A stretch of DNA of 64,000 nt from assembly GCA_964638415.1 (NCBI GenBank), contig CAZWYP010000003.1, positions 86,334-150,333 on the forward strand, in the 5' to 3' direction. Shown here in pieces: positions 20,306-64,000 of this stretch. Position numbers and translations under genes: made by a program. Below the pieces are notes generated by a model, which was not told the DNA's origin, did no database searches, and worked only from the letters and a program-made list of their open reading frames with translations. This stretch comes from an uncultured Gammaproteobacteria bacterium. Lineage in GTDB: Bacteria > Patescibacteriota > Patescibacteriia > UBA1558 > GWA2-36-10. Position 1 is the first letter of the stretch; each line of letters opens with the position of its first letter.

Positions 20306-21054
20306 TATTGTTTAATTAAATGCTGGTAGCCCTTCTCCTCTATTTCTTCTGCCAAATCCGCATTGCCAGATTTAATAATCTGCCCATCCACCATAATATG
20401 GATTTTGTCAGGTTTTAAATAGCGCAAAATACGATTGTAATGGGTAATTAGCAGAATTGACCGCTTATCATTACGCCAATCATTTGCTGCTTCGCCAATA
20501 ACCTTTAAAGCATCAACATCCAAGCCGGAATCAGTTTCATCCAAGATAGCCAACTTGGGTTCTAAAACATATAATTGCAGCATTTCCATTTTTTTCTTCT
20601 CTCCTCCGGAAAATCCATAATTTAAGCTGCGGCTTAAAAACTCCGGCTTAATATTAAGCCGGGCGGCTATTGTTTGTAATTTTTTTTCAAAATCAAAAAC
20701 AGATAAGGAAACACATTGGGGATCACGGGCTTTAGCTATTTCATTATACGCCAGATACAAAAACTGATTTAACGGCACACCCATGATTTCCCGCGGATAT
20801 TGGAAACTCATAAACATTCCCAAAGCTGCTCGCTCTTCCGGCGCTAAATCATTAATTACTTGCCTTTCCCATTTAATTTCTCCGCCGGAAATTACATACT
20901 TAGGATGGCCCATTAGAACATTGGCTAAAGTTGACTTACCCGAACCATTTGGTCCCATGATTACCTGCACCTCTCCAGCCGCTAATGATAAATCTATACC
21001 CTTAAGTATTGACTGGTCATTTATCTGCGCTTTTAATCCTTTTACTTCCAACAT
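20305..21054 (-). CDS. sufC: Fe-S cluster assembly ATPase SufC
   Basis: The 249-aa product has Walker A GPNGSGKST, an ABC signature and Walker B LAILDETDSGLD. Confidence 0.9.
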   Translation of the reverse strand: MLEVKGLKAQINDQSILKGIDLSLAAGEVQVIMGPNGSGKSTLANVLMGHPKYVISGGEIKWERQVINDLAPEERAALGMFMSFQYPREIMGVPLNQFLYLAYNEIAKARDPQCVSLSVFDFEKKLQTIAARLNIKPEFLSRSLNYGFSGGEKKKMEMLQLYVLEPKLAILDETDSGLDVDALKVIGEAANDWRNDKRSILLITHYNRILRYLKPDKIHIMVDGQIIKSGNADLAEEIEEKGYQHLIKQ

Positions 21055-21116
21055 AAATAAATAATAAATTATTGGTAATTAAAACATTTAAAGACTGGCA
21101 TGTCAATTTATTCACC

Positions 21117-32425: not shown

Positions 32426-32595
32426 AAAATTATTAAAAAAATCTGCGTAATTTACCGCAGACAGTTAAAAAACTTCAAGTTTTCTCACCTCGGCAGGATT
32501 TATATTCTAGCTAATATTAGCTAAAAAACCTACTATCTTTGGTAAATATATTTATTGTGTCCTTAGTATATATTATTCAGCTGTTTTTGTCAAAT
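32426..32595 (-). promoter_or_regulatory. rplJ 5' leader region with a stable hairpin (possible L10-autoregulatory leader)
   Basis: A 170-nt untranslated region lies upstream of rplJ. It contains hairpin tctgcg-taatttac-cgcaga and AT-rich promoter-like sequence. Confidence 0.3.
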
Positions 32596-41986: not shown

Positions 41987-43459
41987 CTAATTATCCACAA
42001 AGAATAATTGAGAGCGACCATTAATGGTTTCCGACTGCAATTTGTTCTGATCACCAATGCTTAAATAAGCTTCCGACACGCCGCGTAATAAGTATATTCT
42101 CTGACCAGGATTTTGGGATAATATTTCCTGTAATCCTTCTGCAGAATTAATGCTTAAAAGCTTAGCTCTATTAGCCAGCTGCGGTCCGGCTAACATTAGC
42201 TTGGGCATACTCCAGTCATTCTGCCAGTGAATAACTAATTGGCCATCGGAGATTACACTGGCTAAATCCTGGTAAGCTACTAGATCACCGTCAATTAAAT
42301 GATGCTGGGAAACCTGGCTGGCGGTAGCTAAATATCCCTGCACTAACAAATACTGGGAATTAACATAGGTATAATAGTTTGTAAGCGGACGAGTTAAGCC
42401 TATTATGGTTAATATGCCACTTACTGCCAAAGCAAGTATGAAATAATAACGGGCAAATTTATTGCCGAATAAGCTGGCAGCAGCCATGATGATAATTACC
42501 GGAATAAAGATTAAGCCGTAGCGCTCAATGTCAAAAATGCCATGGCGGTACCAGCCGGCTAAATACAGCCAGAATAAGATCATTATGGATAGTAGAAAAT
42601 AGAACATCTGGCGGTCTTTTTTAAAGAGCTGCTGGGCGCCTAAAATAGCCGCTACTGTCAAAAAGCTGCCGCTGGATTTTAATAAGATAAGAGCGGTTAA
42701 TAATATTTCCTGGATATTAGGCCAGACCGAACCATAGCCAGATAATAAGACACTTAAGGAAAAATTATTAATAAGCCAGTAAGTAAAGATTACTGCTAAA
42801 GCGGTTAATAGCCAGCTGAAGATTATTAATTGTGATTCTGACCGATTGAATCGGCGGAATAGAAATAAACCTAATAGGAAAACCGGCCAAAGTAAGAGAT
42901 AGATCGGCCGGTTTAACAAAGCTAGATACAAGGCTAAATTGCTTAGCCATAAGACATTATTATTTTTTGCCTTGATATACTGCCAGAATAAAGCCCAGGA
43001 GCTTAAGGCTAAAAACAAGGTCATGATATCGCTTAAAGCAGTCACGCTCCAATTCCAGATCACTGGATTGAATACTATGATAACAGTAGCTAACAAAGCC
43101 CAGCTAAAGCGACGCAAAACAAACTTAGCTAAATAATAGACAGGATAAACTAATAAAGAGCTAAAAATGTCAGATAGCAAATTAGGAATAAAAATAATCT
43201 GCCACTGACCAGTAAGCCAATGGCCTACTTTTAAGGATAAGGCTACTATTGCTGTCCATAAAGGATAGCCGGTACTGTGAGCATTCTGATAACTGCCGTT
43301 AATAGCCAGCTCCAAAGCTTTGTGGACAAAATTAAAAGCATCATCATGCCACAGGCTAGTAGCAAGCAGCCACCAGCGCGAAATTAAGACAATAACCGCT
43401 AGTATAAATAAAGCAACAGCTTCCGGACGATGAATAAAATAAGCTATAATGCGTTTCAT
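41987..43459 (-). CDS. Polytopic membrane protein, probable GT-C-fold glycosyltransferase (ArnT/PMT-like)
   Basis: The 490-aa product has more than 10 TM helices and a DD motif in the first extracytoplasmic loop (LWHDDAFNF). Aromatic-rich TM segments are typical of GT39/GT83. Confidence 0.45.
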   Translation of the reverse strand: MKRIIAYFIHRPEAVALFILAVIVLISRWWLLATSLWHDDAFNFVHKALELAINGSYQNAHSTGYPLWTAIVALSLKVGHWLTGQWQIIFIPNLLSDIFSSLLVYPVYYLAKFVLRRFSWALLATVIIVFNPVIWNWSVTALSDIMTLFLALSSWALFWQYIKAKNNNVLWLSNLALYLALLNRPIYLLLWPVFLLGLFLFRRFNRSESQLIIFSWLLTALAVIFTYWLINNFSLSVLLSGYGSVWPNIQEILLTALILLKSSGSFLTVAAILGAQQLFKKDRQMFYFLLSIMILFWLYLAGWYRHGIFDIERYGLIFIPVIIIMAAASLFGNKFARYYFILALAVSGILTIIGLTRPLTNYYTYVNSQYLLVQGYLATASQVSQHHLIDGDLVAYQDLASVISDGQLVIHWQNDWSMPKLMLAGPQLANRAKLLSINSAEGLQEILSQNPGQRIYLLRGVSEAYLSIGDQNKLQSETINGRSQLFFVDN

Positions 43460-43926: not shown

Positions 43927-44745
43927 TTATTTAATTTTAGGAAACGCAGTTATAATATGAGATTTAGTCGGATCAATTATAACTTTCATATTAACGTTAT
44001 CCCGAATACCAGATACAAACCACCTACCATCACGTTGTCGGCTCCAATTTAAACTAGGATCGGTAGCTATATCAGTAGCATTATGAAATATTTGCTTGTC
44101 TGACCATGAGCTTGGGAATTCTGGTTTACCTTTATTTGCTCCGAATTTATGTCCACCACCTTTCATGTCCCCATTTAAAATATGATTCTGTCTATCTAGC
44201 GGTATTATATCATCTACATTATCAATATATTTACTGGCATCATTAACTGTATCCGCTTTCTTAATAACTTTCGCCACATCCACCACGTCATCAGCATGAC
44301 TGACAACTCTACCCATTAATCCTAATCCCGTTGCTCCAGGAATAGCTAATCCCACAGAATCAAGACTTAATGCTTTAACATATTCTTGATTAACCTGTCC
44401 AGTTTGAGCATAACTCTGGGCTATCTTGTATACATCATAAGCGATAAACCCTATGTCTAGAAAGGTGTCTAAGAAATTACCATCAGGATCAGTATATACT
44501 ACTGGGTTATTAGCCGAATAAGCATAGCTATTTAATAGCTGTGGGTTGGACAGAATGCTTTGTAATTCTTGGCTAGACAAATTCTTTAATTGTTCTTGGT
44601 CGTGTAAATTTAGACCAACGCTGTCCATTGAAATGAATCTCCCCAACCCATTATCCATATACCTCGCCCCATAATACTGCAACCCATTTTCATCGTCATA
44701 CTCCTTACCGGTAAAAATTGCTCGCCATGAATATAAATGCGACAA
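43927..44745 (-). CDS. Orphan RHS repeat-associated core tail fused to a polymorphic C-terminal toxin domain of unknown family
   Basis: The N-terminus is FTGKEYDDENGLQYYGARYMDNGLGRFISMDSVGL…NSYAYSANNPVVYTDPDGNF, the conserved RHS core-domain end including the DPxG junction. A ~190-aa variable CT follows. No upstream RHS repeat body is present in the window. Confidence 0.65.
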   Translation of the reverse strand: MSHLYSWRAIFTGKEYDDENGLQYYGARYMDNGLGRFISMDSVGLNLHDQEQLKNLSSQELQSILSNPQLLNSYAYSANNPVVYTDPDGNFLDTFLDIGFIAYDVYKIAQSYAQTGQVNQEYVKALSLDSVGLAIPGATGLGLMGRVVSHADDVVDVAKVIKKADTVNDASKYIDNVDDIIPLDRQNHILNGDMKGGGHKFGANKGKPEFPSSWSDKQIFHNATDIATDPSLNWSRQRDGRWFVSGIRDNVNMKVIIDPTKSHIITAFPKIK

Positions 44746-44866
44746 ATGCGACAGTAAAAAGGGCTTTCAAAAAATTGTCTATTTTCTGCTTCAAAGAACT
44801 TGACTAATTATGATTTTTATTACCTAATATATAATTCTAACTTTTTTAAAAATCACCACTGTTTAT

Positions 44867-51405: not shown

Positions 51406-53109
51406 ATGAGGCTAAGTAAGGCCTTTCTGTTCACTCAGAAGGAAGACCCGCACGACGCGATAAGTGTCAGTCATAAATTACTGGTCAGAGGGGGATATAT
51501 TTATCCTTTCTCAGCCGGTATTTATGCGTATCTTCCCATGATGTGGAAAGTTTTACGGAAGATTGAACAAATCATCCGTGAAGAAATGGATAAGTGTGGT
51601 GGCGTAGAACTCAGTCTACCAATCCTCCATCCTCGATCCATTTGGGAAGAAGCCGGCCGGTGGGCTAATTACACTGGGGCAAAATTTCTATTTCATCTGC
51701 AAGATCGCAGAGGGGAAGATTTCTGTCTCGCGCCGACGGCTGAAGAAGCCATGGTTGACTTGGTTCGATCTCGCATGAAGTCATATCGAGACCTGCCGCT
51801 GATTCTCTATCAATTCGGCGAAAAGTTTCGAGATGAACTGCGCCCGCGCAGCGGCATTATCCGTGTTCGAGAATTCATCATGAAGGACGGATATTCCTTC
51901 CATGCCAATGAACAGAGTATGCGTGACACCTTCGGCTTGCTGAAAGATGTTTACAGCACAATCTTTGCACGTTGCGGCATTGACGTACGTCCGGTTGAAG
52001 CTGATTCCGGTGATATCGGCGGAGCATGTTCTACGGAGTTCATGATTCTGACCGATACGGGAGAAGACACGGTTCTCAGTTGCAACTCCTGCCATTATGG
52101 AGCCAATGTGGAAAAAGCCAACTCCATTCTGGACACCCCTGCCCAGCAAGAACCGAAAGAGCTGGAGAAAATTCACACACCGGGCATCAAAACAATCGGC
52201 CAACTTGGAGAATTTCTCGACGGCACACCGGCCAGTCAAGTGCTCAAGACGGTGATTTACCGAGCCGATGACCAATTGGTTGTTGTACTGATCCGGGGTG
52301 ACTTGGAAGTCAATGAACGCAAGCTCGAAAGCATCATCACGGCTTCCTATTTTGCTCCCGCTGATGAACAGACCATCAAACAACTCACTGGTGGAGAAGC
52401 TGGGTTTACCGGACCCATTGGGCTGTCGGGAGCGCTCATCGTTGCCGACAAATCCGTGCAAACCATGTCGAACTTCGTCTGTGGCGCCAACGAAACAGAC
52501 TACCACTACATCAACGTCAATTTCGGTAGGGATCTGACCTTACCGGAAAAATTCGTGGATGTCAGAAACGCCCGTGAAGGCGACATTTGTCCTCACTGCC
52601 GCCAAAGCAGGCTCAAAATTAACCGGGGTATTGAGCTTGGCCACGTTTTTCAGTTAGGATTGAGGTATTCAACACCAATGAACCTCACCTACATTGATGA
52701 CAACGGCCAGAGCCAACCCGTTTTAATGGGCTGCTACGGCATCGGGGTTCCGAGGATAGCCGCCGGCGTCATTGAACAAAGTCATGACGAAAACGGGATC
52801 ATCTGGCCGGAAGCGATTGCTCCCTACCGCGTGATCATCACTCCCGTTTCATGGAACGATCAAACCCAACGCCAACTTGCGGAAGCAATTTACCTGTCAT
52901 TATCAAATGCGGGTGAAGAAGTGCTGTTGGACGATCGAGACGAAAGACCCGGCGTCAAATTCAAAGACGCCGACCTTCTGGGAATTCCATGGAGAGTCAC
53001 CGTCGGACGGCAAGCAACGGAAGGATTGGTTGAAATCAAGAATCGAAAAACGGGAGTCACAATAACCGTGAATCCCGAACAACTTCTGCACATGCTGAAA
53101 ACGCCTTGA
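51406..53109 (+). CDS. proS: Prolyl-tRNA synthetase, second copy (bacterial type with editing domain); GC-rich, likely xenolog
   Basis: The 567-aa product has class II motifs and an INS editing domain. It is roughly 45% identical by eye to the native copy at 56581-58287. GC is about 50% against about 36%. Confidence 0.85.
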   Translation: MRLSKAFLFTQKEDPHDAISVSHKLLVRGGYIYPFSAGIYAYLPMMWKVLRKIEQIIREEMDKCGGVELSLPILHPRSIWEEAGRWANYTGAKFLFHLQDRRGEDFCLAPTAEEAMVDLVRSRMKSYRDLPLILYQFGEKFRDELRPRSGIIRVREFIMKDGYSFHANEQSMRDTFGLLKDVYSTIFARCGIDVRPVEADSGDIGGACSTEFMILTDTGEDTVLSCNSCHYGANVEKANSILDTPAQQEPKELEKIHTPGIKTIGQLGEFLDGTPASQVLKTVIYRADDQLVVVLIRGDLEVNERKLESIITASYFAPADEQTIKQLTGGEAGFTGPIGLSGALIVADKSVQTMSNFVCGANETDYHYINVNFGRDLTLPEKFVDVRNAREGDICPHCRQSRLKINRGIELGHVFQLGLRYSTPMNLTYIDDNGQSQPVLMGCYGIGVPRIAAGVIEQSHDENGIIWPEAIAPYRVIITPVSWNDQTQRQLAEAIYLSLSNAGEEVLLDDRDERPGVKFKDADLLGIPWRVTVGRQATEGLVEIKNRKTGVTITVNPEQLLHMLKTP

Positions 53110-56580: not shown

Positions 56581-58287
56581 CTACTCCGTAAGATAATGCA
56601 TTAATTCACTAAGTAAAACCAATTCAGTCTTTTCTTCCCAGCGTTTTTTCAATTCTGCACTTTTTTGCTCAATGGTTTTTTTACTGATCACTATACGTAA
56701 AGGAATGCCGATAAGATCAGCGTCGGCAAATTTTTCCCCGGCCGGTTTTTCCCGATCATCATATAAAACCTCTACATCTTTAGCAACCATTTCTTGATAT
56801 AGCTTGTCGGCCTCGTCATAAGCACCGTCCAAAGCAATTAGATGAACTCTAAACGGAGCCACTGTTTCCGGCCAAATGATACCTTTGGCGTCATGATACT
56901 TTTCTACTATTGCCGCCATGGTACGACCAACACCGATACCATAACAACCCATATAAAAAGGTTTTTCTTTACCGTCAATATCAATATATGATGCCCCTTT
57001 CATCTTATGAGAATAGTGATAACCAAGCTGAAAAATATTTCCAACTTCAATGCCCCGTTTTTCAATTAGTTGTTTCTTGCTTCCAGTAGACTCAAAACCT
57101 TCTTTAGCTAAAGCAATATCACCTTCAATGTCTGACTGATAATCACGATCAATATTGACGTTTAACAGATCAATATTTTTTTTGTTACTGCCACCGTAAG
57201 CATTGGCAATAGTTCGCAAAGAATCATCAGCCACAATAAGCAAATTAACCTTATTATCTATGTTATTTTTAATCTTAACCGGTGAGATGAAGCCCGGCTC
57301 GGAATTAATAGATTCCCTAATCTCATCATCCGTGGCGTGTCGCAAAGTTGTAGCGTGTATTAAATTTTTTAATTTAACTTCATTAACGTCTAAATCTCCC
57401 CTAATAATTGCTAAAATAAATCTATTCTGATCGTCAACAAAAAGAACATCTTTAATCTGTTGCCATAAAGGCAAATTATGAAACTTAACTCCATCCTCCA
57501 TAGTTACACCTCGTTCAGCTTTAATTTCAGTTAATTCCAATTGCTTGTCGTCTTTGTTTTTTATTTCTTTTTCAAACAGAACAACGTCCTCGTGTGCGGC
57601 ATAATCACCATTTTCAGTAACAAAAAATTTGCTTTCACCGATATCCGATTCAACTACAAATTCATGACAATATTCTCCCCCTATATAACCGTTATCCGAA
57701 GCTACGATGTAAGTTTTTAATCCCAAACGTTCAAAGATTTTCGTATAAACTTCCTTCATGCATTCATATTCTATCTTAAAATCAGCCTCATCTTTGTGAA
57801 AAGAATATCCATCCTTCATTATAAACTCACGAACACGCAACAATCCTCCTCTAGCTCTCAATTCATCGCGAAACTTGGGAGAAAATTGATAAAGATGAAA
57901 AGGCAGATCACGATAACTTAAAGTATATTGACGCACTAAATCAACAAACATCTCTTCCGCCGTACCACCTAAAGCAAACTCGGCTCCCCGACGATCTTTT
58001 ACTTTCATTAATTCAAACCCGGTAGTGTTGGTTCTGTTGGTTTCCTGCCATAACTCCAACGGATGTAAAATAGGCGTCACCATTTCCTGAGCACCGATGG
58101 CGTCCATTTCTTGTTTAATAACGGATATTATCTTCTGTTGCACTTTGTGACCAATCGGTAAAAAATAATAGCGACCCGCTACTGATTCACGAATAAAACC
58201 GCCTTGCTTTAGAAGTCGGGCGGAAACGATTTTTTCATCGTCTGATATTTGTTTAGTGGTTTTTAAAAAATAATGAGATAATCTCAT
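56581..58287 (-). CDS. proS: Prolyl-tRNA synthetase (native, low-GC copy)
   Basis: The 568-aa product is bacterial-type ProRS with an editing domain. Its composition matches the bulk genome. Confidence 0.9.
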   Translation of the reverse strand: MRLSHYFLKTTKQISDDEKIVSARLLKQGGFIRESVAGRYYFLPIGHKVQQKIISVIKQEMDAIGAQEMVTPILHPLELWQETNRTNTTGFELMKVKDRRGAEFALGGTAEEMFVDLVRQYTLSYRDLPFHLYQFSPKFRDELRARGGLLRVREFIMKDGYSFHKDEADFKIEYECMKEVYTKIFERLGLKTYIVASDNGYIGGEYCHEFVVESDIGESKFFVTENGDYAAHEDVVLFEKEIKNKDDKQLELTEIKAERGVTMEDGVKFHNLPLWQQIKDVLFVDDQNRFILAIIRGDLDVNEVKLKNLIHATTLRHATDDEIRESINSEPGFISPVKIKNNIDNKVNLLIVADDSLRTIANAYGGSNKKNIDLLNVNIDRDYQSDIEGDIALAKEGFESTGSKKQLIEKRGIEVGNIFQLGYHYSHKMKGASYIDIDGKEKPFYMGCYGIGVGRTMAAIVEKYHDAKGIIWPETVAPFRVHLIALDGAYDEADKLYQEMVAKDVEVLYDDREKPAGEKFADADLIGIPLRIVISKKTIEQKSAELKKRWEEKTELVLLSELMHYLTE

Positions 58288-58521
58288 AATAATTACAGTA
58301 AAAGCTTCGGATTACACAACTTAAATATGCCAAAATTATAGGCATTTTTGATGCTTTTGTCCAGTCTATAATAAACAATACTTATTAAGAATGATTTTGA
58401 ATGTACAAACCGTCTACGTTTGACGAATAAACCCTTTCATACCGTAATATGATACCCTCTGGACTTATCCCACCCCTGCGGTATCATCCACCCTACAATA
58501 AGCTAAGTATAGCAAAAAACC

Positions 58522-59427
58522 ATGAAAAAAGCAGTGTTGTACGCCAGGGTGAGTTCGGCTCTCCAGGAAAAGGAAAGAACCATAGAAAGCCAGATTTTAG
58601 AGCTTAAAAATCAGATAAAAAAGTCAGGTAATATCTTGGTTCACGAATACGTGGATGACGGCTATTCCGGAGCAATGTTGTCCAGGCCCGGTTTAGACAA
58701 ATTAAGGCAGGACTTAAAAACCAATTTATTTGATACCATCTACTTTCATAATACCGACCGCATTGCCCGCGACGTTACTTACCAAAATATTATCATCGGA
58801 GAAATCCTTAATCACCAAAAACAGATAATAATAAACGGTGAGGACTATGTCCATAATCCAGAGAATAAATTTACCTTAACGGTTTTAGGAGCAGTAGCGG
58901 AACTTGAAAAAGCCAAAATCTTGGAACGCAGTATGAGAGGAAGACTGTATCGATTAAAACAGGGACAGTTATTGTCCCATGGCTATAATATCTACGGGTA
59001 TAATTATATTTACAAAACAGACACTACTCCTCCGGCTTATACTGTAAACTCCGAGGAAGCTCGAGTGGTTAACTATATCTTTAAGCTTTACGCTCAAGGT
59101 AAGATTAACTACCGGCAACTGGAAAAAAAGTTAGTGAAAGAAAAGATTCCACCCAGAAAAGGCAGAAAATGGAATTGGAGTCAGTTAAGATTAATGTTGC
59201 GAAACGAAACCTATACCGGCATCAGATATTTTAACACCACTACGGATAACAACGCTTTATTAAAATTCGGTCCCAGAGAGAAAACCATCAGGAGAATAAA
59301 AACGGACAGATCAACTTGGATTGGCATTAAAATCCCGGGAATAATATCCCGGGATTTATTTAATAAAGTCCAACATAGAATTAGCCATGAATTGGAGTTA
59401 TATAACAATAAGAAAAAATTAAGATGA
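58522..59427 (+). CDS. Large serine recombinase, truncated paralog (resolvase and recombinase domains only)
   Basis: The 301-aa product has the catalytic motif YARVSS at its N-terminus. It lacks the Zn-ribbon and coiled-coil regions present in the downstream paralog, and its stop overlaps the next start (ATGA). Confidence 0.75.
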   Translation: MKKAVLYARVSSALQEKERTIESQILELKNQIKKSGNILVHEYVDDGYSGAMLSRPGLDKLRQDLKTNLFDTIYFHNTDRIARDVTYQNIIIGEILNHQKQIIINGEDYVHNPENKFTLTVLGAVAELEKAKILERSMRGRLYRLKQGQLLSHGYNIYGYNYIYKTDTTPPAYTVNSEEARVVNYIFKLYAQGKINYRQLEKKLVKEKIPPRKGRKWNWSQLRLMLRNETYTGIRYFNTTTDNNALLKFGPREKTIRRIKTDRSTWIGIKIPGIISRDLFNKVQHRISHELELYNNKKKLR

Positions 59428-61022
59428 AAAAAGCCGTCCTCTACGCCCGGGTAAGTTCTAGCAGACAGGAAAAAGAAAAAACCATTGCCAGCCAAATCTC
59501 GGAACTGAAAAAACAAATCCAAGATAATGGAGATAGTTTAGTTAAAGAATACATAGACAATGGCTATTCTGGCGCTTTACTTGATCGGCCGGCTTTAAAT
59601 GAACTGCGGCAGGATTTAAAGTCAGATTTATTTGATACTATTTATTTTCTTAATACCGATAGGATTGCCCGGGAAGTAACTTATCAGACGATTATCATTG
59701 CCGAGATTTTAAGGTATAAAAAGCAAATAATTATCAACGGCAAGGATTATGTCAACAATCCGGAGAATAAGTTTACCTTAACCATTTTAGGAGCGGTTTC
59801 CGAATTGGAAAGAGCCAAGATAATTGAAAGAAGCTTGAGAGGTAAATTATATAAGTTAAAACAAGGTCAGCTGTTAAATAACGGCAGTAATATGTACGGG
59901 TATCGCTACATCAAGAAAAGCCGTCTCTCCCCGGCTAAGTTGGTAATTAACCCAACTGAAGCCAAAGTAATTAAATATCTCTTTTCCTCTTATGCTAAAG
60001 GCTTAAGTTGGAGTAAATTAATTCATTATTTGGAAGACAAAGGGATTAAGACTAAAAACGGCCAAAAGCTTTGGAATATTCCCAAATTAAAGTCGATCTT
60101 GGAAAATCATACCTATTACGGCTTAAAACACTTTAACCGAATTAAACATGATAAAACTGACGGTGGTATATCCAAATACGGCCGGAAAGTAATTAAAGAT
60201 AAAGCAGAATGGATCAGTATTAAAGTCCCGGCCATTATCCCTAAATCTTTATTTGATAAGGTTCAACTCAGGTTAAAAAACAATACCAAGGTTTACAGGA
60301 GAAAACCGGAAACGCAACTGCTTTCCGGTTTAATTGTCTGTGGGAATTGTCAGAGACGGTTTATAGCCTACCAGAGGTATTATAGGTATAGAACAAAGAC
60401 GGCAAATAAGGTGGTTCATAAGGTAGCTTATGTTTGCGGCAGACGAGCAAAAAACGTTATGCATTCCAAAAAATTAACTAAAGACTTATGTAAAAACCCG
60501 GAAATATCCGCCCGGGTAATTGAACCTGCTGTTTGGCAGATGATTACCGATACCCTGCTTAATCCCGACAAGCTACTCCTCTGCACTGATTATGTGAAAG
60601 ATAGGGTTAATAAAAAGCTGGAAAAACAAATAAATGTTATTGATAATAACATACTGGATTTAACCAATGAGAAAAAACAATGTTTAGATCGATATGCCAA
60701 AGGCAAAATAACCAGAACCCAATATTCTAAAAAATCTCAACAAACTGATAATGAGATTGAAAAGTTGAAAAACAAAAAAGACAAGCTAATTAAAAGCGTG
60801 CCGGCTTTGCACAAAAAATATATGATTGAGATAAGCGTTAAACAGTTTTGTGAAATAGCCAAAACCAGATTTGAACAAGCAAATGACTTTGAAACTAAAA
60901 GACAGTTTTTATTAGATTATATAGATAAGATTATCTATCTAAACAAAGAATTGACCTTATCCGGGTTAATTTTTGTTGATGGGGTTAATAAGATTAAATT
61001 TTATATTAAGAATGAGATTTAG
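59424..61022 (+). CDS. Large serine recombinase (integrase), full length
   Basis: The 532-aa product has YARVSSSRQ, a recombinase domain, a Zn-ribbon (CGNCQRRF…CGRR) and a C-terminal coiled-coil. Confidence 0.85.
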   Translation: MKKAVLYARVSSSRQEKEKTIASQISELKKQIQDNGDSLVKEYIDNGYSGALLDRPALNELRQDLKSDLFDTIYFLNTDRIAREVTYQTIIIAEILRYKKQIIINGKDYVNNPENKFTLTILGAVSELERAKIIERSLRGKLYKLKQGQLLNNGSNMYGYRYIKKSRLSPAKLVINPTEAKVIKYLFSSYAKGLSWSKLIHYLEDKGIKTKNGQKLWNIPKLKSILENHTYYGLKHFNRIKHDKTDGGISKYGRKVIKDKAEWISIKVPAIIPKSLFDKVQLRLKNNTKVYRRKPETQLLSGLIVCGNCQRRFIAYQRYYRYRTKTANKVVHKVAYVCGRRAKNVMHSKKLTKDLCKNPEISARVIEPAVWQMITDTLLNPDKLLLCTDYVKDRVNKKLEKQINVIDNNILDLTNEKKQCLDRYAKGKITRTQYSKKSQQTDNEIEKLKNKKDKLIKSVPALHKKYMIEISVKQFCEIAKTRFEQANDFETKRQFLLDYIDKIIYLNKELTLSGLIFVDGVNKIKFYIKNEI

Positions 61023-61581
61023 TATTTTTATTTAAAGCAGCAACAAATACTTGCTTAACATAATAATAAGCTCTTTCTTTTGACCTGTACCAAAACAATA
61101 TTATCAATGATATAGAAAATGCATGATATAAATATACACCTATATATTCTGGCAATAAAATCAAATAAATAATAAATGATGAGACTAAAATTACCCTAGA
61201 AAAAACATAACTTGCATTCATATTACTAATAATTTCATCCTGTCCTACTAATCTTGAAGAAACCTCAAATATCTTTTTTTCAGAGCAATCTTTACCATTA
61301 GTAATGATGCCTTTTAATTCATCGACTTCATTAAATCTTATTCGCCCACACCCTTTTCCTTTTAAAAATTGAACAGCTGGTTCACCTCCCCAAGTCCAAT
61401 ATATTATACCCTCTAGCCAACCACTAATAGAATTAACTAAATAGCCAATAACATAAGCTAAGGCCGTCGCAGGTAAAGCTGGTATGCTACTCTGACTTAA
61501 ATCCAATCTATACATTATACCCATAAGGATAAGAAAACCTGGGACTAAAATAGAAAGTAAATTATATAAATTAAAATTCAT
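61006..61581 (-). CDS. Hypothetical membrane protein (4 TM)
   Basis: The 191-aa product is the last gene of the AT-rich operon. Confidence 0.45.
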   Translation of the reverse strand: MNFNLYNLLSILVPGFLILMGIMYRLDLSQSSIPALPATALAYVIGYLVNSISGWLEGIIYWTWGGEPAVQFLKGKGCGRIRFNEVDELKGIITNGKDCSEKKIFEVSSRLVGQDEIISNMNASYVFSRVILVSSFIIYLILLPEYIGVYLYHAFSISLIILFWYRSKERAYYYVKQVFVAALNKNTKSHS

Positions 61582-61585
61582 AATT

Positions 61586-62374
61586 TTATATACTTAATTG
61601 ATATTTATCTATATTCTTTTTCAACAAAAGTAAACCCTTAAAAACTTCTGGGGGACAATTACTACAAGATTCTAATTTACCCCAACCACAGACACATGCC
61701 CAACGCCCTTTAATCCTTTTTTTGGATAAATAATTAGCAATTTCACTCCAGACAATATGGTCCAAATTATTATTATTCAAATATCTCAAAACTTCTATAC
61801 ATTTCAAGGTTAACTCTTTACAATCATTTTTTTGTGATTTTTCATAATAGTTTACTAATATCCCTAAACAACCATGAGGAAAAACGCCCCTAGGCCACTT
61901 CTTATTATCTCTAAAAAAACTTTGATCATAGAAGAAAGGAATGATTATCCCACAAAGAAAATCACGAAAAGGAATATCATTATCTTCATCCAAATATCCA
62001 GCCACACAAGCCGTACCATTATGGGGATTAATATGCATATCTGGGCTTTGCTTAATTTTTCCTCCTACTTCTTTAACTAATCTATAAACATTATCCGCCG
62101 ACAAATTTATCTCTATATCATATTCATCCTGTATCACATTGTCTTTATCACCAATGCTGGATATATCCTTATAAATATTATAATCCTTAGTACTAGGCTC
62201 AAATGAGGCAACGAATTTAAGCTTACCCTTTAGATAATTATCTCTATTAATCTCTTCAAAATATAGATCGGGGAAAAAATTATTTACAAGATCTTTATCT
62301 TCTTGTTTAACTAGCATAAGGATAATATGGCCTACTCTTAAATCCCGAATCTTTAGTTGAGTAAAGTAAACCAT
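61586..62374 (-). CDS. Cys-rich hypothetical protein (262 aa)
   Basis: The product has HINPHNGTACVAGY and a C-terminal CVCGWGKLESCSNCPP Zn-ribbon-like motif. The gene overlaps the upstream MBL gene; an alternative start at 62317 gives an 11-nt overlap. Confidence 0.4.
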   Translation of the reverse strand: MVYFTQLKIRDLRVGHIILMLVKQEDKDLVNNFFPDLYFEEINRDNYLKGKLKFVASFEPSTKDYNIYKDISSIGDKDNVIQDEYDIEINLSADNVYRLVKEVGGKIKQSPDMHINPHNGTACVAGYLDEDNDIPFRDFLCGIIIPFFYDQSFFRDNKKWPRGVFPHGCLGILVNYYEKSQKNDCKELTLKCIEVLRYLNNNNLDHIVWSEIANYLSKKRIKGRWACVCGWGKLESCSNCPPEVFKGLLLLKKNIDKYQLSI

Positions 62375-63338
62375 TATCTACTCCACTAACATCTTTATTA
62401 TCACCTTCATCTGAAATGTGCAAATTACCACTACTATCTATATCTACAATAACGTTTTTATTTTTGTCTCCTAAATGATATATATTTTCCGACTTTACAT
62501 ATTTTTTATATATATCCATAGCATCATCATGTGGATGATCGTGCGGACTGTCCTTTTGTTTTGGTGAGCTAATTATTAGATACTTTGGCTCTATCTCTTT
62601 TATATGATCCTCATAAATATCCTTATCATCTTCGCTATCTTTAAAAAATGTTCTGGATCCATGATGAGAAGCGCTTAAAATATCACTTTTTAAAACACCC
62701 TTATGGTATTTGGTTATATAATCTTTCCAAGCTGTCTTATCTGAATCTCCAGTAAGTAAAACGCTTTTATCATTATAAGTGAATTTAATAACACCGCACT
62801 GTTCGTGAATTCTTTTTCTCCTCTCTTCCGGTTTCTCTCCATCTATATCATCGCACACATATTTTGCTGGTGATAATACTTGAAAATCTATATCACCTAT
62901 TTTTTTAATAACTTTTGAACTCTCCTCTCTGTCTGTATGCAAAACATTCAAATCTCTAGTACCTCTTAAATAGAAAACATTTTTCTCACCTACTTTCTTA
63001 ATAACTGCTTCAAGTTCTTTGAAGCTATCCTCGTGTTCTTTACTTGGTTTATGCCCAGAGTGCCATACTTCCTTAATCAAATCTTTAATATCTTTTATTC
63101 CTTTTACGTGATCATTATGTGGGTGGGTATTAATAAAGACAAGATTATTATCTCCTATCTCTTTCAAATAATCCTTTAACAAAACTCCGCCTCTATCTTC
63201 GTCTATATTGGCATCCACTAAAATATAATCATGGCTATCACCGTCTGGCACTATTAATAATGTTGATTCTCCTTGACCAACATAAAGAAAAATAATCCTG
63301 AATATACCCTTATCGGGCATTAATAAATTGCTTTTCAT
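62307..63338 (-). CDS. MBL-fold metallo-hydrolase, ComEC C-terminal-domain-like
   Basis: The 343-aa product has LYVGQGESTLL, HPHNDHVKG (HxHxDH) and SASHHGSRT motifs, as in the ComEC/Rec2 beta-lactamase-like domain. Confidence 0.65.
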   Translation of the reverse strand: MKSNLLMPDKGIFRIIFLYVGQGESTLLIVPDGDSHDYILVDANIDEDRGGVLLKDYLKEIGDNNLVFINTHPHNDHVKGIKDIKDLIKEVWHSGHKPSKEHEDSFKELEAVIKKVGEKNVFYLRGTRDLNVLHTDREESSKVIKKIGDIDFQVLSPAKYVCDDIDGEKPEERRKRIHEQCGVIKFTYNDKSVLLTGDSDKTAWKDYITKYHKGVLKSDILSASHHGSRTFFKDSEDDKDIYEDHIKEIEPKYLIISSPKQKDSPHDHPHDDAMDIYKKYVKSENIYHLGDKNKNVIVDIDSSGNLHISDEGDNKDVSGVDNGLLYSTKDSGFKSRPYYPYAS

Positions 63339-63354
63339 AATAATATAATTAATT

Positions 63355-63864
63355 TTAAATAAAGATATTTTTGTTCTCCTTTATTATAAATATATATTCG
63401 TGAACTCCTCTTTTTTCGCCCTTTATTATCCGGGCTTTTAGCTTACCTTCTTTAATCATTTTTCTAGCAGTAGCTGGATGAATACCAAATCTATCTTTTA
63501 ATTCCCACATGGCATACCAACTATCCCTATTTTTACAAATATAGCCCGGAATCACCTTTGTGTCTATTGCTCTTTGGCAGGTTAAGCATTTAGGGCCATA
63601 TTTATCCCACCAGCCATTTTTACTAGTTATAGGAGAGTGACAAATAAGACAATTATATGTAACCCCTTCCTCTATAGGAAAACCATTTGGCTCTTTCTTT
63701 AAACGAATTTGTTTACTTTTAATATTTGTATCAACTTTGATTAACGTCTGAAAAAAACCTAATAGGTTATGTGCAGATTCTTCAGCAGCCTTATATGATA
63801 TCTCCTTACCATAAACTTTTTTATACACCTTTTGAAATTCTTTTATGTCTTTTTCTGATAGCAT
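63355..63864 (-). CDS. Zn-ribbon protein with a C-terminal HTH-like segment
   Basis: The 169-aa product has CLICH…CLTCQ and an HTH-like IHPATARKMIKEGKLKARII. Confidence 0.4.
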   Translation of the reverse strand: MLSEKDIKEFQKVYKKVYGKEISYKAAEESAHNLLGFFQTLIKVDTNIKSKQIRLKKEPNGFPIEEGVTYNCLICHSPITSKNGWWDKYGPKCLTCQRAIDTKVIPGYICKNRDSWYAMWELKDRFGIHPATARKMIKEGKLKARIIKGEKRGVHEYIFIIKENKNIFI

Positions 63865-63873
63865 AAATTAATA

Positions 63874-64000
63874 TCTCCAAAAACCAATCCAGATTAAAAA
63901 TATCTTATTCAGGCGATAAATTGGATAAGCAATTATTCCAAACCAAACACCATCAATTACTTGTGGTCCAAAAATAAAATATAAAATAGTTACTAATAAA
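63874..64000 (-). CDS. Partial hydrophobic ORF (C-terminal end) continuing beyond the window, first visible gene of the AT-rich operon
   Basis: The reverse frame reads …LLVTILYFIFGPQVIDGVWFGIIAYPIYRLNKIFLIWIGFWRY* and ends 6 nt before the next ATG. Confidence 0.35.

Follow-up and report, generated by a model that had tools for sequence, protein, structure and literature searches.

Large serine recombinases encoded as neighbouring genes have been described in several mobile elements, of which CcrAB comprises two co-transcribed recombinases mobilising cassettes, defence cassettes included (PMC6222049; PMC11470126). The serine-integrase triplets of Streptococcus integrative and conjugative elements (ICEs) cluster by their position in the module (PMC4701971). 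The single-gene phage serine integrases (A118/LI, SPbeta SprA, TP901-1, Bxb1, and phiC31) act as a homotetramer of one protein together with a directionality factor, and an integrase deprived of its zinc-ribbon domain is deficient in binding its attachment (att) DNA, with the coiled coil setting site selectivity and pairing (PMC3783163). The present analysis concerns two overlapping large serine recombinase genes, LSR1 and LSR2, found upstream of the prolyl-tRNA synthetase gene proS in a 64,000-nucleotide stretch of Patescibacteria DNA (contig CAZWYP010000003.1, positions 86,334 to 150,333; hereafter the window). Judged by sequence comparison, they appear to correspond to A and B of a two-recombinase operon that is conserved at the edge of small Patescibacteria integrative elements, and the copy in the window is probably an immobilised, CcrAB-like integrative island, in which the operon has decayed to a truncated A (A') followed by B.

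In common with CcrA/CcrB (of SCCmec and the enterococcal ccrAB_Ent), the locus presents two side-by-side paralogous recombinases as the sole conserved genes at the edge of a variable cassette with defence cargo (PMC6222049; PMC11470126), and the two genes form an adjacent, co-oriented operon, as seen in their ATGA overlap and in the recurrence of the pair in nine loci. A and B are nevertheless not orthologues of CcrA and CcrB, with the NCBIfam model SCCmet_CcrB giving 90-123 bits for both (cutoff 900) and SCCmet_CcrA giving 43 bits for LSR1 only (cutoff 700). Both resemble CcrB more than CcrA, and since both best match the same model far below its cutoff, the duplication behind A and B is considered to be independent of that behind CcrA and CcrB. 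The systems further differ in the host phylum, in the flank (here proS or a toxin-array locus by the PGK operon, rather than the 3' end of rlmH), and in the similar lengths of A and B when intact. The Streptococcus ICE triplets offer a parallel in that their clustering by position also indicates that the module descends from an ancestor with several genes and did not arise through repeated local duplications (PMC4701971), but they consist of three genes and belong to conjugative elements of Firmicutes, and no conjugation genes were seen here. With the phage integrases, LSR2 shares the domain order and the inserted coiled coil, its closest solved structure being SPbeta SprA/YokA (9dxh, E = 2e-15); unlike their single homotetrameric protein, two diverged proteins are always co-encoded here. 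LSR1, being a natural truncation past the recombinase domain, is reminiscent of the integrase mutants from which the zinc ribbon or coiled coil had been deleted and which were deficient in binding or site selectivity (PMC3783163), with the difference that A' sits beside an intact B. Apart from a survey of inoviruses, a literature search returned no paper linking serine recombinases to Patescibacteria or the candidate phyla radiation.

An earlier note on this DNA had described the two adjacent reading frames as paralogous large serine recombinases, the first ending early and its stop codon overlapping the second start, and in these respects it was borne out. Both proteins match the Pfam families Resolvase (4.7e-25 for LSR1 and 5.5e-26 for LSR2) and Recombinase (PF07508; 2.3e-17 over residues 178-288 of LSR1, equivalent to profile positions 2-100 of 102 and hence a complete domain, and 7.2e-18 for LSR2), and Zn_ribbon_recom is matched by LSR2 alone (Pfam, 3.8e-10), LSR1 having no zinc ribbon. 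Home-made profiles of the four regions place the end of LSR1, at residue 301, directly past the recombinase domain, with the zinc-ribbon and coiled-coil profiles matching LSR2. LSR1 is hence a truncated derivative of a large serine recombinase and not a complete member, and LSR2 is by domain content a standard one. The stop of LSR1 and the start of LSR2 share an ATGA (AGATGAAAAAAG at 59421). Their identity is rather lower than the 60-65% previously given for the catalytic and recombinase domains: BLASTP aligns the proteins with 166/301 identities (55%, E = 5e-114), made up of 75% in the catalytic domain (residues 1-150) and 34% in the remainder. The locus is also present in a further, independent assembly (L011), which matches the window without a difference over 8,480 bases and extends 3.8 kb past its end.

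The evidence that the two genes belong together stems from related loci, which are cited below by their labels (Table 1). A-then-B pairs were found in nine independent Patescibacteria loci, counting the window, L178, L179/L180, L181, L182/L183, L184/L185, L186, L187, and L013/L014; the stop and start overlap by 4 nt in six of the loci, by 32 nt in L179, and are 3 nt apart in L187. Four further A/B pairs are implied by proteins that apparently lie on common contigs, and a metagenome scan with the family alignment returned mostly short contigs and distant recombinases (30-40%), with few informative pairs. In residues 1-300, the full-length A proteins of L178 and L179 show 73-77% identity to LSR1, and LSR2 is 68% and 64% identical over its full length to the respective B proteins; these closest homologues of LSR2 (L178, L179/L180) are each preceded by a full-length A recombinase. 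The window thus has the order A then B of this module without having both partners at full length (about 530-580 residues; 531-580 in the intact elements). The orthology, the conservation of the pair, the truncation of A, and the intactness of B are all supported directly by these comparisons.

An all-against-all identity matrix groups the first genes together and the second genes together, first and second being ~44% identical over their full length. Likewise, a neighbour-joining tree built on the first 300 residues of 137 family members places all first genes in an A clade and all second genes in a B clade, with matching sub-groupings in the two. The A-clade proteins in the tree measure 531-596 residues, save for LSR1 (301) and the A protein of L012 (374), which has been cut by an insertion sequence. 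Across elements, A and B are ~70-77% identical in the catalytic domain and 36-44% in the recombinase domain, and their identity inside one element is no higher than across elements, so that gene conversion, which was considered as a source of the similarity between A and B, does not explain it. Taken together, the sequences show that the A/B duplication is old and that the two genes have been inherited together.

With regard to the truncation, the homology of LSR1 to full-length A stops at ...LYNNKKKL, aligned with ...CYRNVKETKLLSNL in the relatives (...YNNKKKL with ...YRNVKETKLLSNL), after which B starts. No remnant of the zinc ribbon or coiled coil of A was found in any frame by tblastn and domain profiles, in the window or in the 3.8 kb that L011 adds. 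This points to the loss of that part through a clean deletion of roughly 0.7-0.8 kb and not through a frameshift. The first frame is indeed full-length in relatives, as the earlier note had considered possible, but the sequencing frameshift that it would have deduced from this was not found, a clean deletion standing in its place. In L178, the 9-mer AATTATTAT occurs in the linker between the recombinase domain and the zinc ribbon and again at the 3' end of A, which makes a microhomology deletion between short repeats, sparing the ATGA overlap, a plausible route. LSR2 shows an ordinary evolutionary rate and has kept 104/106 invariant B positions, including the Cys and His residues of the zinc ribbon.

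Table 1. Features of the window (positions in the whole stretch) and of the related A/B loci; aa, amino acid residues.
Feature	Position	Strand	Description
LSR1 (LSR-A')	58522..59427	+	301 aa, C-terminally truncated A-type large serine recombinase; catalytic and recombinase domains only
LSR2 (LSR-B)	59424..61022	+	532 aa, intact B-type large serine recombinase; catalytic, recombinase, zinc-ribbon, and coiled-coil regions
Putative deletion junction and ATGA overlap	59412..59430	+	AAAAAATTAAGATGAAAAAAG
Leader motif, copy 2	58420..58450	+	TTGACG-N19-TAATAT, upstream of LSR-A'
Promoter-like block	58460..58489	+	TGGACTT-N-CCACCCCTGCGGTATCATCC, upstream of the operon
8-bp inverted repeat	58449-58456 / 58480-58487		ATGATACC / GGTATCAT
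Partial leader copy	44734..44830	+	decayed dyad and TTGACT-N19-TAATAT (44800-44830)
RHS-type orphan toxin cassette	43927..44745	-	EndoU nuclease C-terminus; Pfam EndoU_bacteria 1e-09
proS	56581..58287	-	prolyl-tRNA synthetase, flanking chromosomal gene; Pfam tRNA-synt_2b, tRNA_edit, HGTP_anticodon
proS promoter-like site	58335..58363	-	TGGACA-17-TATAAT, 11 of 12
Cargo, membrane protein	61006..61581	-	191 aa, predicted; no family match; low-GC stretch
Cargo, E2-like protein	61586..62374	-	262 aa, ubiquitin-conjugating-like, defence-associated; PADLOC E2 model 1.5e-24
Cargo, metallo-beta-lactamase-fold protein	62307..63338	-	343 aa; Pfam Lactamase_B 8e-07; PADLOC PDC-M48B 1e-07
Cargo, Cys-rich protein	63355..63864	-	169 aa, C-terminal HTH_17-like helix-turn-helix; Pfam HTH_17 4.9e-4, below curated cutoff
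Cargo, membrane-protein gene (3' part)	63868..64000	-	124 aa, runs off the window; 67% identical in L178, 39% in L181
L178 and L179/L180			A 531 and 569 aa, respectively; A stop overlaps B start
L181			Doudnabacteria genome; A/B 570/565 aa
L182/L183			A/B 576/563 aa
L184/L185			Falkowbacteria genome; A/B 576/580 aa
L186			A/B 564/469 aa
L187			A/B 569/551 aa
L013/L014			A/B 572/301 aa

In the mechanism proposed here, full-length A and B are probably translated together in the intact elements and, by analogy with CcrA/CcrB of SCCmec, would act as a mixed tetramer. Each of CcrA and CcrB is generally proposed to read its own half-sites. The catalytic and tetramerisation domain shared by A and B (~75% identical) would assemble the one with the other, and each protein would recognise its own kind of att half-site through the recombinase and zinc-ribbon domains, which have diverged (~35-45% identical); it is the conserved catalytic domain, together with the diverged DNA-reading domains and the strict co-inheritance, that suggests the mixed tetramer. 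The deletion in A would have removed the zinc ribbon and coiled coil while keeping the ATGA coupling to B. Without this part, A' should be able neither to hold its half-site nor to control synapsis, and since its DNA-recognition half is missing, the island is most likely locked upstream of proS. As B and the promoter block are intact, A' and B are probably still made, and A' could interfere with B. The heteromeric action, the loss of mobility, and the mechanism of the deletion are what we infer from the comparisons above.

Several observations weigh against this account. The 301 retained residues of A show no decay, 71/71 of the positions with a conservation of 93% or more among 128 relatives having been kept, including S11, R9, D79, R80, R83, E135, R136, and R139. 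The lineage-specific changes in LSR1 number ~1.6x those of full-length orthologues (22-26 against 13-14), a difference which is not significant (p = 0.06-0.16). This lack of decay would mean either that the deletion is recent or that the short protein is still under selection. A and B may not in fact act as a heteromer, or B alone might suffice, and the co-phylogeny of A and B lends only indirect support to a need for both proteins in excision and integration. Furthermore, the att site, the empty site, and the right end of the island could not be defined, with the window and L011 both ending inside it. Lastly, the element does not lie at the locus occupied in its closest relatives and its leader is rearranged.

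The first of these points lends itself to a different explanation, in which A' is a selected working subunit that pairs with B via the shared catalytic and tetramer interface and contributes catalysis, or a dominant-negative one that blocks excision of the island. All catalytic and conserved residues are intact, the cut falls exactly at the boundary between the recombinase domain and the zinc ribbon, and the translational coupling to B and the promoter block have been preserved. In addition, the B protein of L013/L014 is stopped at the same linker in two samples, and other family members end near residue 300 (P0037, P0042, and P0056). The comparison of damaged loci nonetheless speaks for accident. 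One partner is disabled in 4/10 loci, namely the window, L013/L014, L186, and L012, each by a different type of mutation. The B gene of L013/L014 carries an in-frame TAA (L013 4443-4445) just before LLSNLVRCGEC, either a fixed nonsense mutation or possibly a site of read-through, and downstream of it the zinc ribbon and coiled coil are still encoded in the same frame. B of L186 has a frameshift inside the coiled coil, and A of L012 (P0002) has been cut by an insertion sequence, the sequence directly following its 374 residues matching the terminal inverted repeats of a nearby IS3-like element. Short proteins or scrambled C-termini were likewise seen in many further members of the family that lie on long contigs.

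Such short forms, arising from differing accidents (nonsense codon, frameshift, and insertion) in differing partners, are scattered in the tree and form no clade, and one of them, P0056, has 8 mismatches at conserved positions. The persistence of the zinc-ribbon and coiled-coil sequence behind the stop in L013, the slight and non-significant acceleration of LSR1, and the poor DNA binding of integrases without a zinc ribbon (PMC3783163) all point in the same direction. A working A' is on balance unlikely, and the pattern of damage is more in keeping with mobility genes undergoing ordinary decay than with a short form by design; the truncation of LSR1 itself is ordinary decay. A wider form of the same idea would take the partner lacking zinc ribbon and coiled coil as a recurrent selected state, in which a subunit of ~300 residues completes or poisons the tetramer and so fixes the defence island with the option of reactivation kept, the shared cut in A here and in B elsewhere being convergence. 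This we regard as distinctly unlikely.

The surroundings of the pair are consistent with the remains of a mobile island. The earlier placing of the two genes in foreign DNA beside proS is upheld by the GC content, which drops from about 0.36 to 0.28-0.32 over the stretch downstream of B, by the defence-like character of the genes there, and by the lack of an upstream recombinase at the two closest proS relatives. The E2-like protein is 27% identical to a gene of the L179 element that adjoins a ThsB-TIR gene, and no E1 or JAB partner was visible beside the cargo. The Cys-rich protein is possibly a regulator or excisionase-like. Beyond the 124-residue gene, L011 continues with a gene of 255 codons and then with a Dsr1-like gene of more than 938 codons (PADLOC 8.5e-20; L011 9507-12323, equivalent to window 65027-67843), the product of which matches the C-terminal region of Dsr1 and is similar to a 1132-residue protein of L181. 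The 124-residue gene and the Dsr1-like gene, shared with L178 and L181, link the window to the related elements, and the window accordingly holds one extremity of a related island whose cargo is defence-like.

The related elements L178, L179, L181, L183, and L184 share a backbone consisting of a LexA-like S24 repressor, a ParB-N6/N4 methyltransferase, a protein of 140-190 residues, and a protein of 358-485 residues with faint terminase similarity, with the exceptions that the repressor was not identified in L181 or L184 and that the 358-485-residue protein is reduced or absent in L181. Their variable genes sit between B and the repressor, as exemplified by the ThsB-TIR and E2-like genes of L179, a CD-NTase with Cap15 in L183, and a UvrD-type helicase in L187. 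In L183, a pair resembling a cyclic-oligonucleotide-based antiphage signalling system (CBASS), consisting of the CD-NTase and the Cap15 effector (449-1992), adjoins the LexA-like repressor, which fits the idea that the elements spread defence systems in Patescibacteria. A LOOT RNA (RF03000, 89 bits) was also observed near the far end of the L179 element (20949-21069, - strand), between a gene of 164 codons and an RHS locus. No virion genes (capsid, portal, or tail) were recognised with PHROGs in the visible part, the relatives giving only faint terminase-like matches, and the search of viral contigs yielded no close relative (best 32%). The element is for these two reasons called an integrative island rather than a prophage.

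The DNA leading up to A is in part a further common feature of the elements. The window contains two occurrences of the motif TTGACK-N19-TAATAT and no more (58420 and 44800), where 0.03 would be expected, and in 1.28 Mb of other loci it is found upstream of A genes alone (L012, L178, L179/180, L184/185, and L187). In the relatives, the motif is immediately preceded by a strong dyad hairpin (z about -5), in which base changes compensate one another between loci; hairpin and T-run are positioned at 8125-8185 in L179, 9822-9882 in L012, and 9810-9870 in L184, and could represent a terminator or part of the attachment site. The hairpin is absent upstream of LSR1 (58360-58420). The motif is followed by the promoter-like block, and the two together span 58420-58489 in the window, where the spacer between them lacks 10 nt relative to L012, L178, and L179. 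The 18-mer CCACCCCTGCGGTATCAT of the block is identical in the window, L012, L178, and L179/L180, and was also seen upstream of A in L187, although the flanking coding DNA is only ~70% identical. The block scans as a promoter (TGGACT-16-TATCAT), and the invariance of its spacer suggests a putative protein-binding site overlapping it. The earlier note had singled out an inverted repeat in the same region as a plausible att or recombinase-binding site. The repeat is present, but on shuffling the 234-bp spacer between proS and LSR1, 13% of the resulting sequences contain a perfect inverted repeat of 8 bp; the left arm of the repeat in the window is not conserved in L012, L178, and L179, and its right arm is the -10-like end of the conserved block, so that the role assigned to it was not sustained.

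The second copy of the leader motif draws attention to the locus at which the elements are usually found. This copy is partial: its dyad (44734-44786) is decayed (z = -0.2), and its homology to the left flank and leader of L012, L178, and L179 ends right after TAATAT. It adjoins the EndoU cassette, the N-terminal region of which is 50-61% identical to genes directly flanking A in L179 and L012, and in L012, L178, L179, and L187 the leader of A is directly adjoined by a homologous cassette. The stretch at 41987-43459 (- strand) is likewise part of this RHS-type toxin locus, which lies downstream of the iPGM-enolase-PGK cluster; the iPGM-enolase-PGK-toxin synteny is shared by the window, L012, and L179 as far as its PGK end reaches. 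Between the two leader copies lie 13.6 kb encoding a two-component system, an S-adenosylmethionine decarboxylase, a peptidase, a second proS, an ABC transporter, and the native proS, all of which looks chromosomal. The second prolyl-tRNA synthetase (51406-53109, + strand) is complete, has ~50% GC in a genome of ~35% GC, is 40% identical to the native enzyme, and looks horizontally acquired by these sequence features.

The motif at 44800-44830 was at first sight a candidate for the empty bacterial attachment site (attB), an assignment that became less likely once the same motif and dyad were found inside the L184 element, between the terminase-like gene and A. For the same reason, 44734-44830 is preferably read as what is left of an element end at the usual locus, in which case the island with A' and B would be a second, rearranged copy beside proS; the alternative of an unoccupied target resembling the element's own site is less likely. 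The pair abuts RHS-type toxin or immunity genes in at least seven loci (L012, L178, L179, L181, L182, L184, and L187), which suggests that the A/B elements prefer toxin arrays as their target. In most of the loci examined, RHS/YD-repeat polymorphic toxin genes with their immunity or orphan cassettes lay beside the elements, as noted at L181 12500-19438, L182 6170-13917, L184 14045-16575, and L179 3321-8172. The recurrent neighbourhood could also be read as a sign that A and B are a site-specific switch rearranging RHS or polymorphic-toxin cassettes instead of an integrase module. The pair, however, always travels with the repressor, the ParB-methyltransferase, the terminase-like backbone, and variable cargo, the copy in the window has no adjoining toxin gene, and no inverted target sites were found, all of which makes a toxin switch very unlikely.

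On the side of proS, which is transcribed divergently from the recombinases, the foreign DNA would begin at a point between about 58364 and 58419 if the site at 58335-58363 is the native proS promoter. The synthetase is 78% and 75% identical to those of two Patescibacteria metagenome-assembled genomes, neither of which has a recombinase upstream. In the search for an empty site in relatives, as advised in the earlier note, the proS relatives L001-L004 were found to have no upstream recombinase, but neither a clean empty site nor attB could be defined from them, as their neighbours differ, because the synteny around proS is not conserved. A search for att sequences found no second or inverted copy of the invariant 18-mer in any locus, and a 10-nt direct repeat was the sole sequence joining the ends of the L179 element. 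Nor do the far ends of related elements significantly match the sequence to the right of the partial leader copy in the window.

The remaining explanations dispense with an inherited A/B operon or with the truncation itself. An assembly or sequencing artefact, the real A being full-length, might be entertained because the ~72% nucleotide identity between the 5' halves of A and B could mislead an assembler and because both assemblies may come from the same reads. Nevertheless, the two agree base for base over 8.5 kb, the repeat at the junction is only ~6-9 nt and far under assembler k-mer sizes, and the outcome is an exact in-frame reading frame with the ATGA overlap kept and no frameshift, rendering an artefact highly improbable. 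A recent tandem duplication of one recombinase gene on the spot, followed by decay of one copy, was among the options put forward earlier, and is what adjacent, co-oriented, and paralogous genes with one truncated might be expected to look like. The decay has stood up to scrutiny; the local duplication has not, as LSR1 and LSR2 are each closer to their counterparts in other genomes (73-77% and 64-68%) than to each other (55%), the A/B split is older than many lineages, and the identity within elements does not exceed that between them, so that it is scarcely credible. Almost no credence is given to the other option, two elements integrated successively at one site with a recombinase each, for although the partial leader copy 13.6 kb away makes more than one integration or a rearrangement plausible, neither an att site nor cargo separates the two genes, which overlap by 4 nt, and the A-B unit was found in nine loci altogether, in most of them with the 4-nt overlap.

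Two other features of the window were recorded in passing. A 149-nt match to the Rfam tRNA model (2817-2965, - strand; 42 bits), not listed by ARAGORN and adjoining a tRNA-Cys, possibly represents a tRNA with an intron or some other interruption. The match to a ribosomal protein L10 leader (32426-32560, - strand; 45.5 against a gathering score of 44 bits) is ordinary.

The division of labour in paired or tripled large serine recombinases, be it in SCCmec, the enterococcal cassettes, or the streptococcal ICEs, is still poorly understood, and the independent and widely conserved A/B pair of Patescibacteria provides a second natural system in which to ask why two recombinases are needed. The copy in the window is, as a decayed example, of limited interest in itself, its use lying in the natural truncation that it offers for probing the role of the zinc ribbon and coiled coil in a heteromer. 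The noteworthy part is the conserved two-recombinase module of Patescibacteria, with its link to toxin loci and its defence cargo, and the pair may serve as a marker for mobile islands in the reduced genomes of these bacteria.

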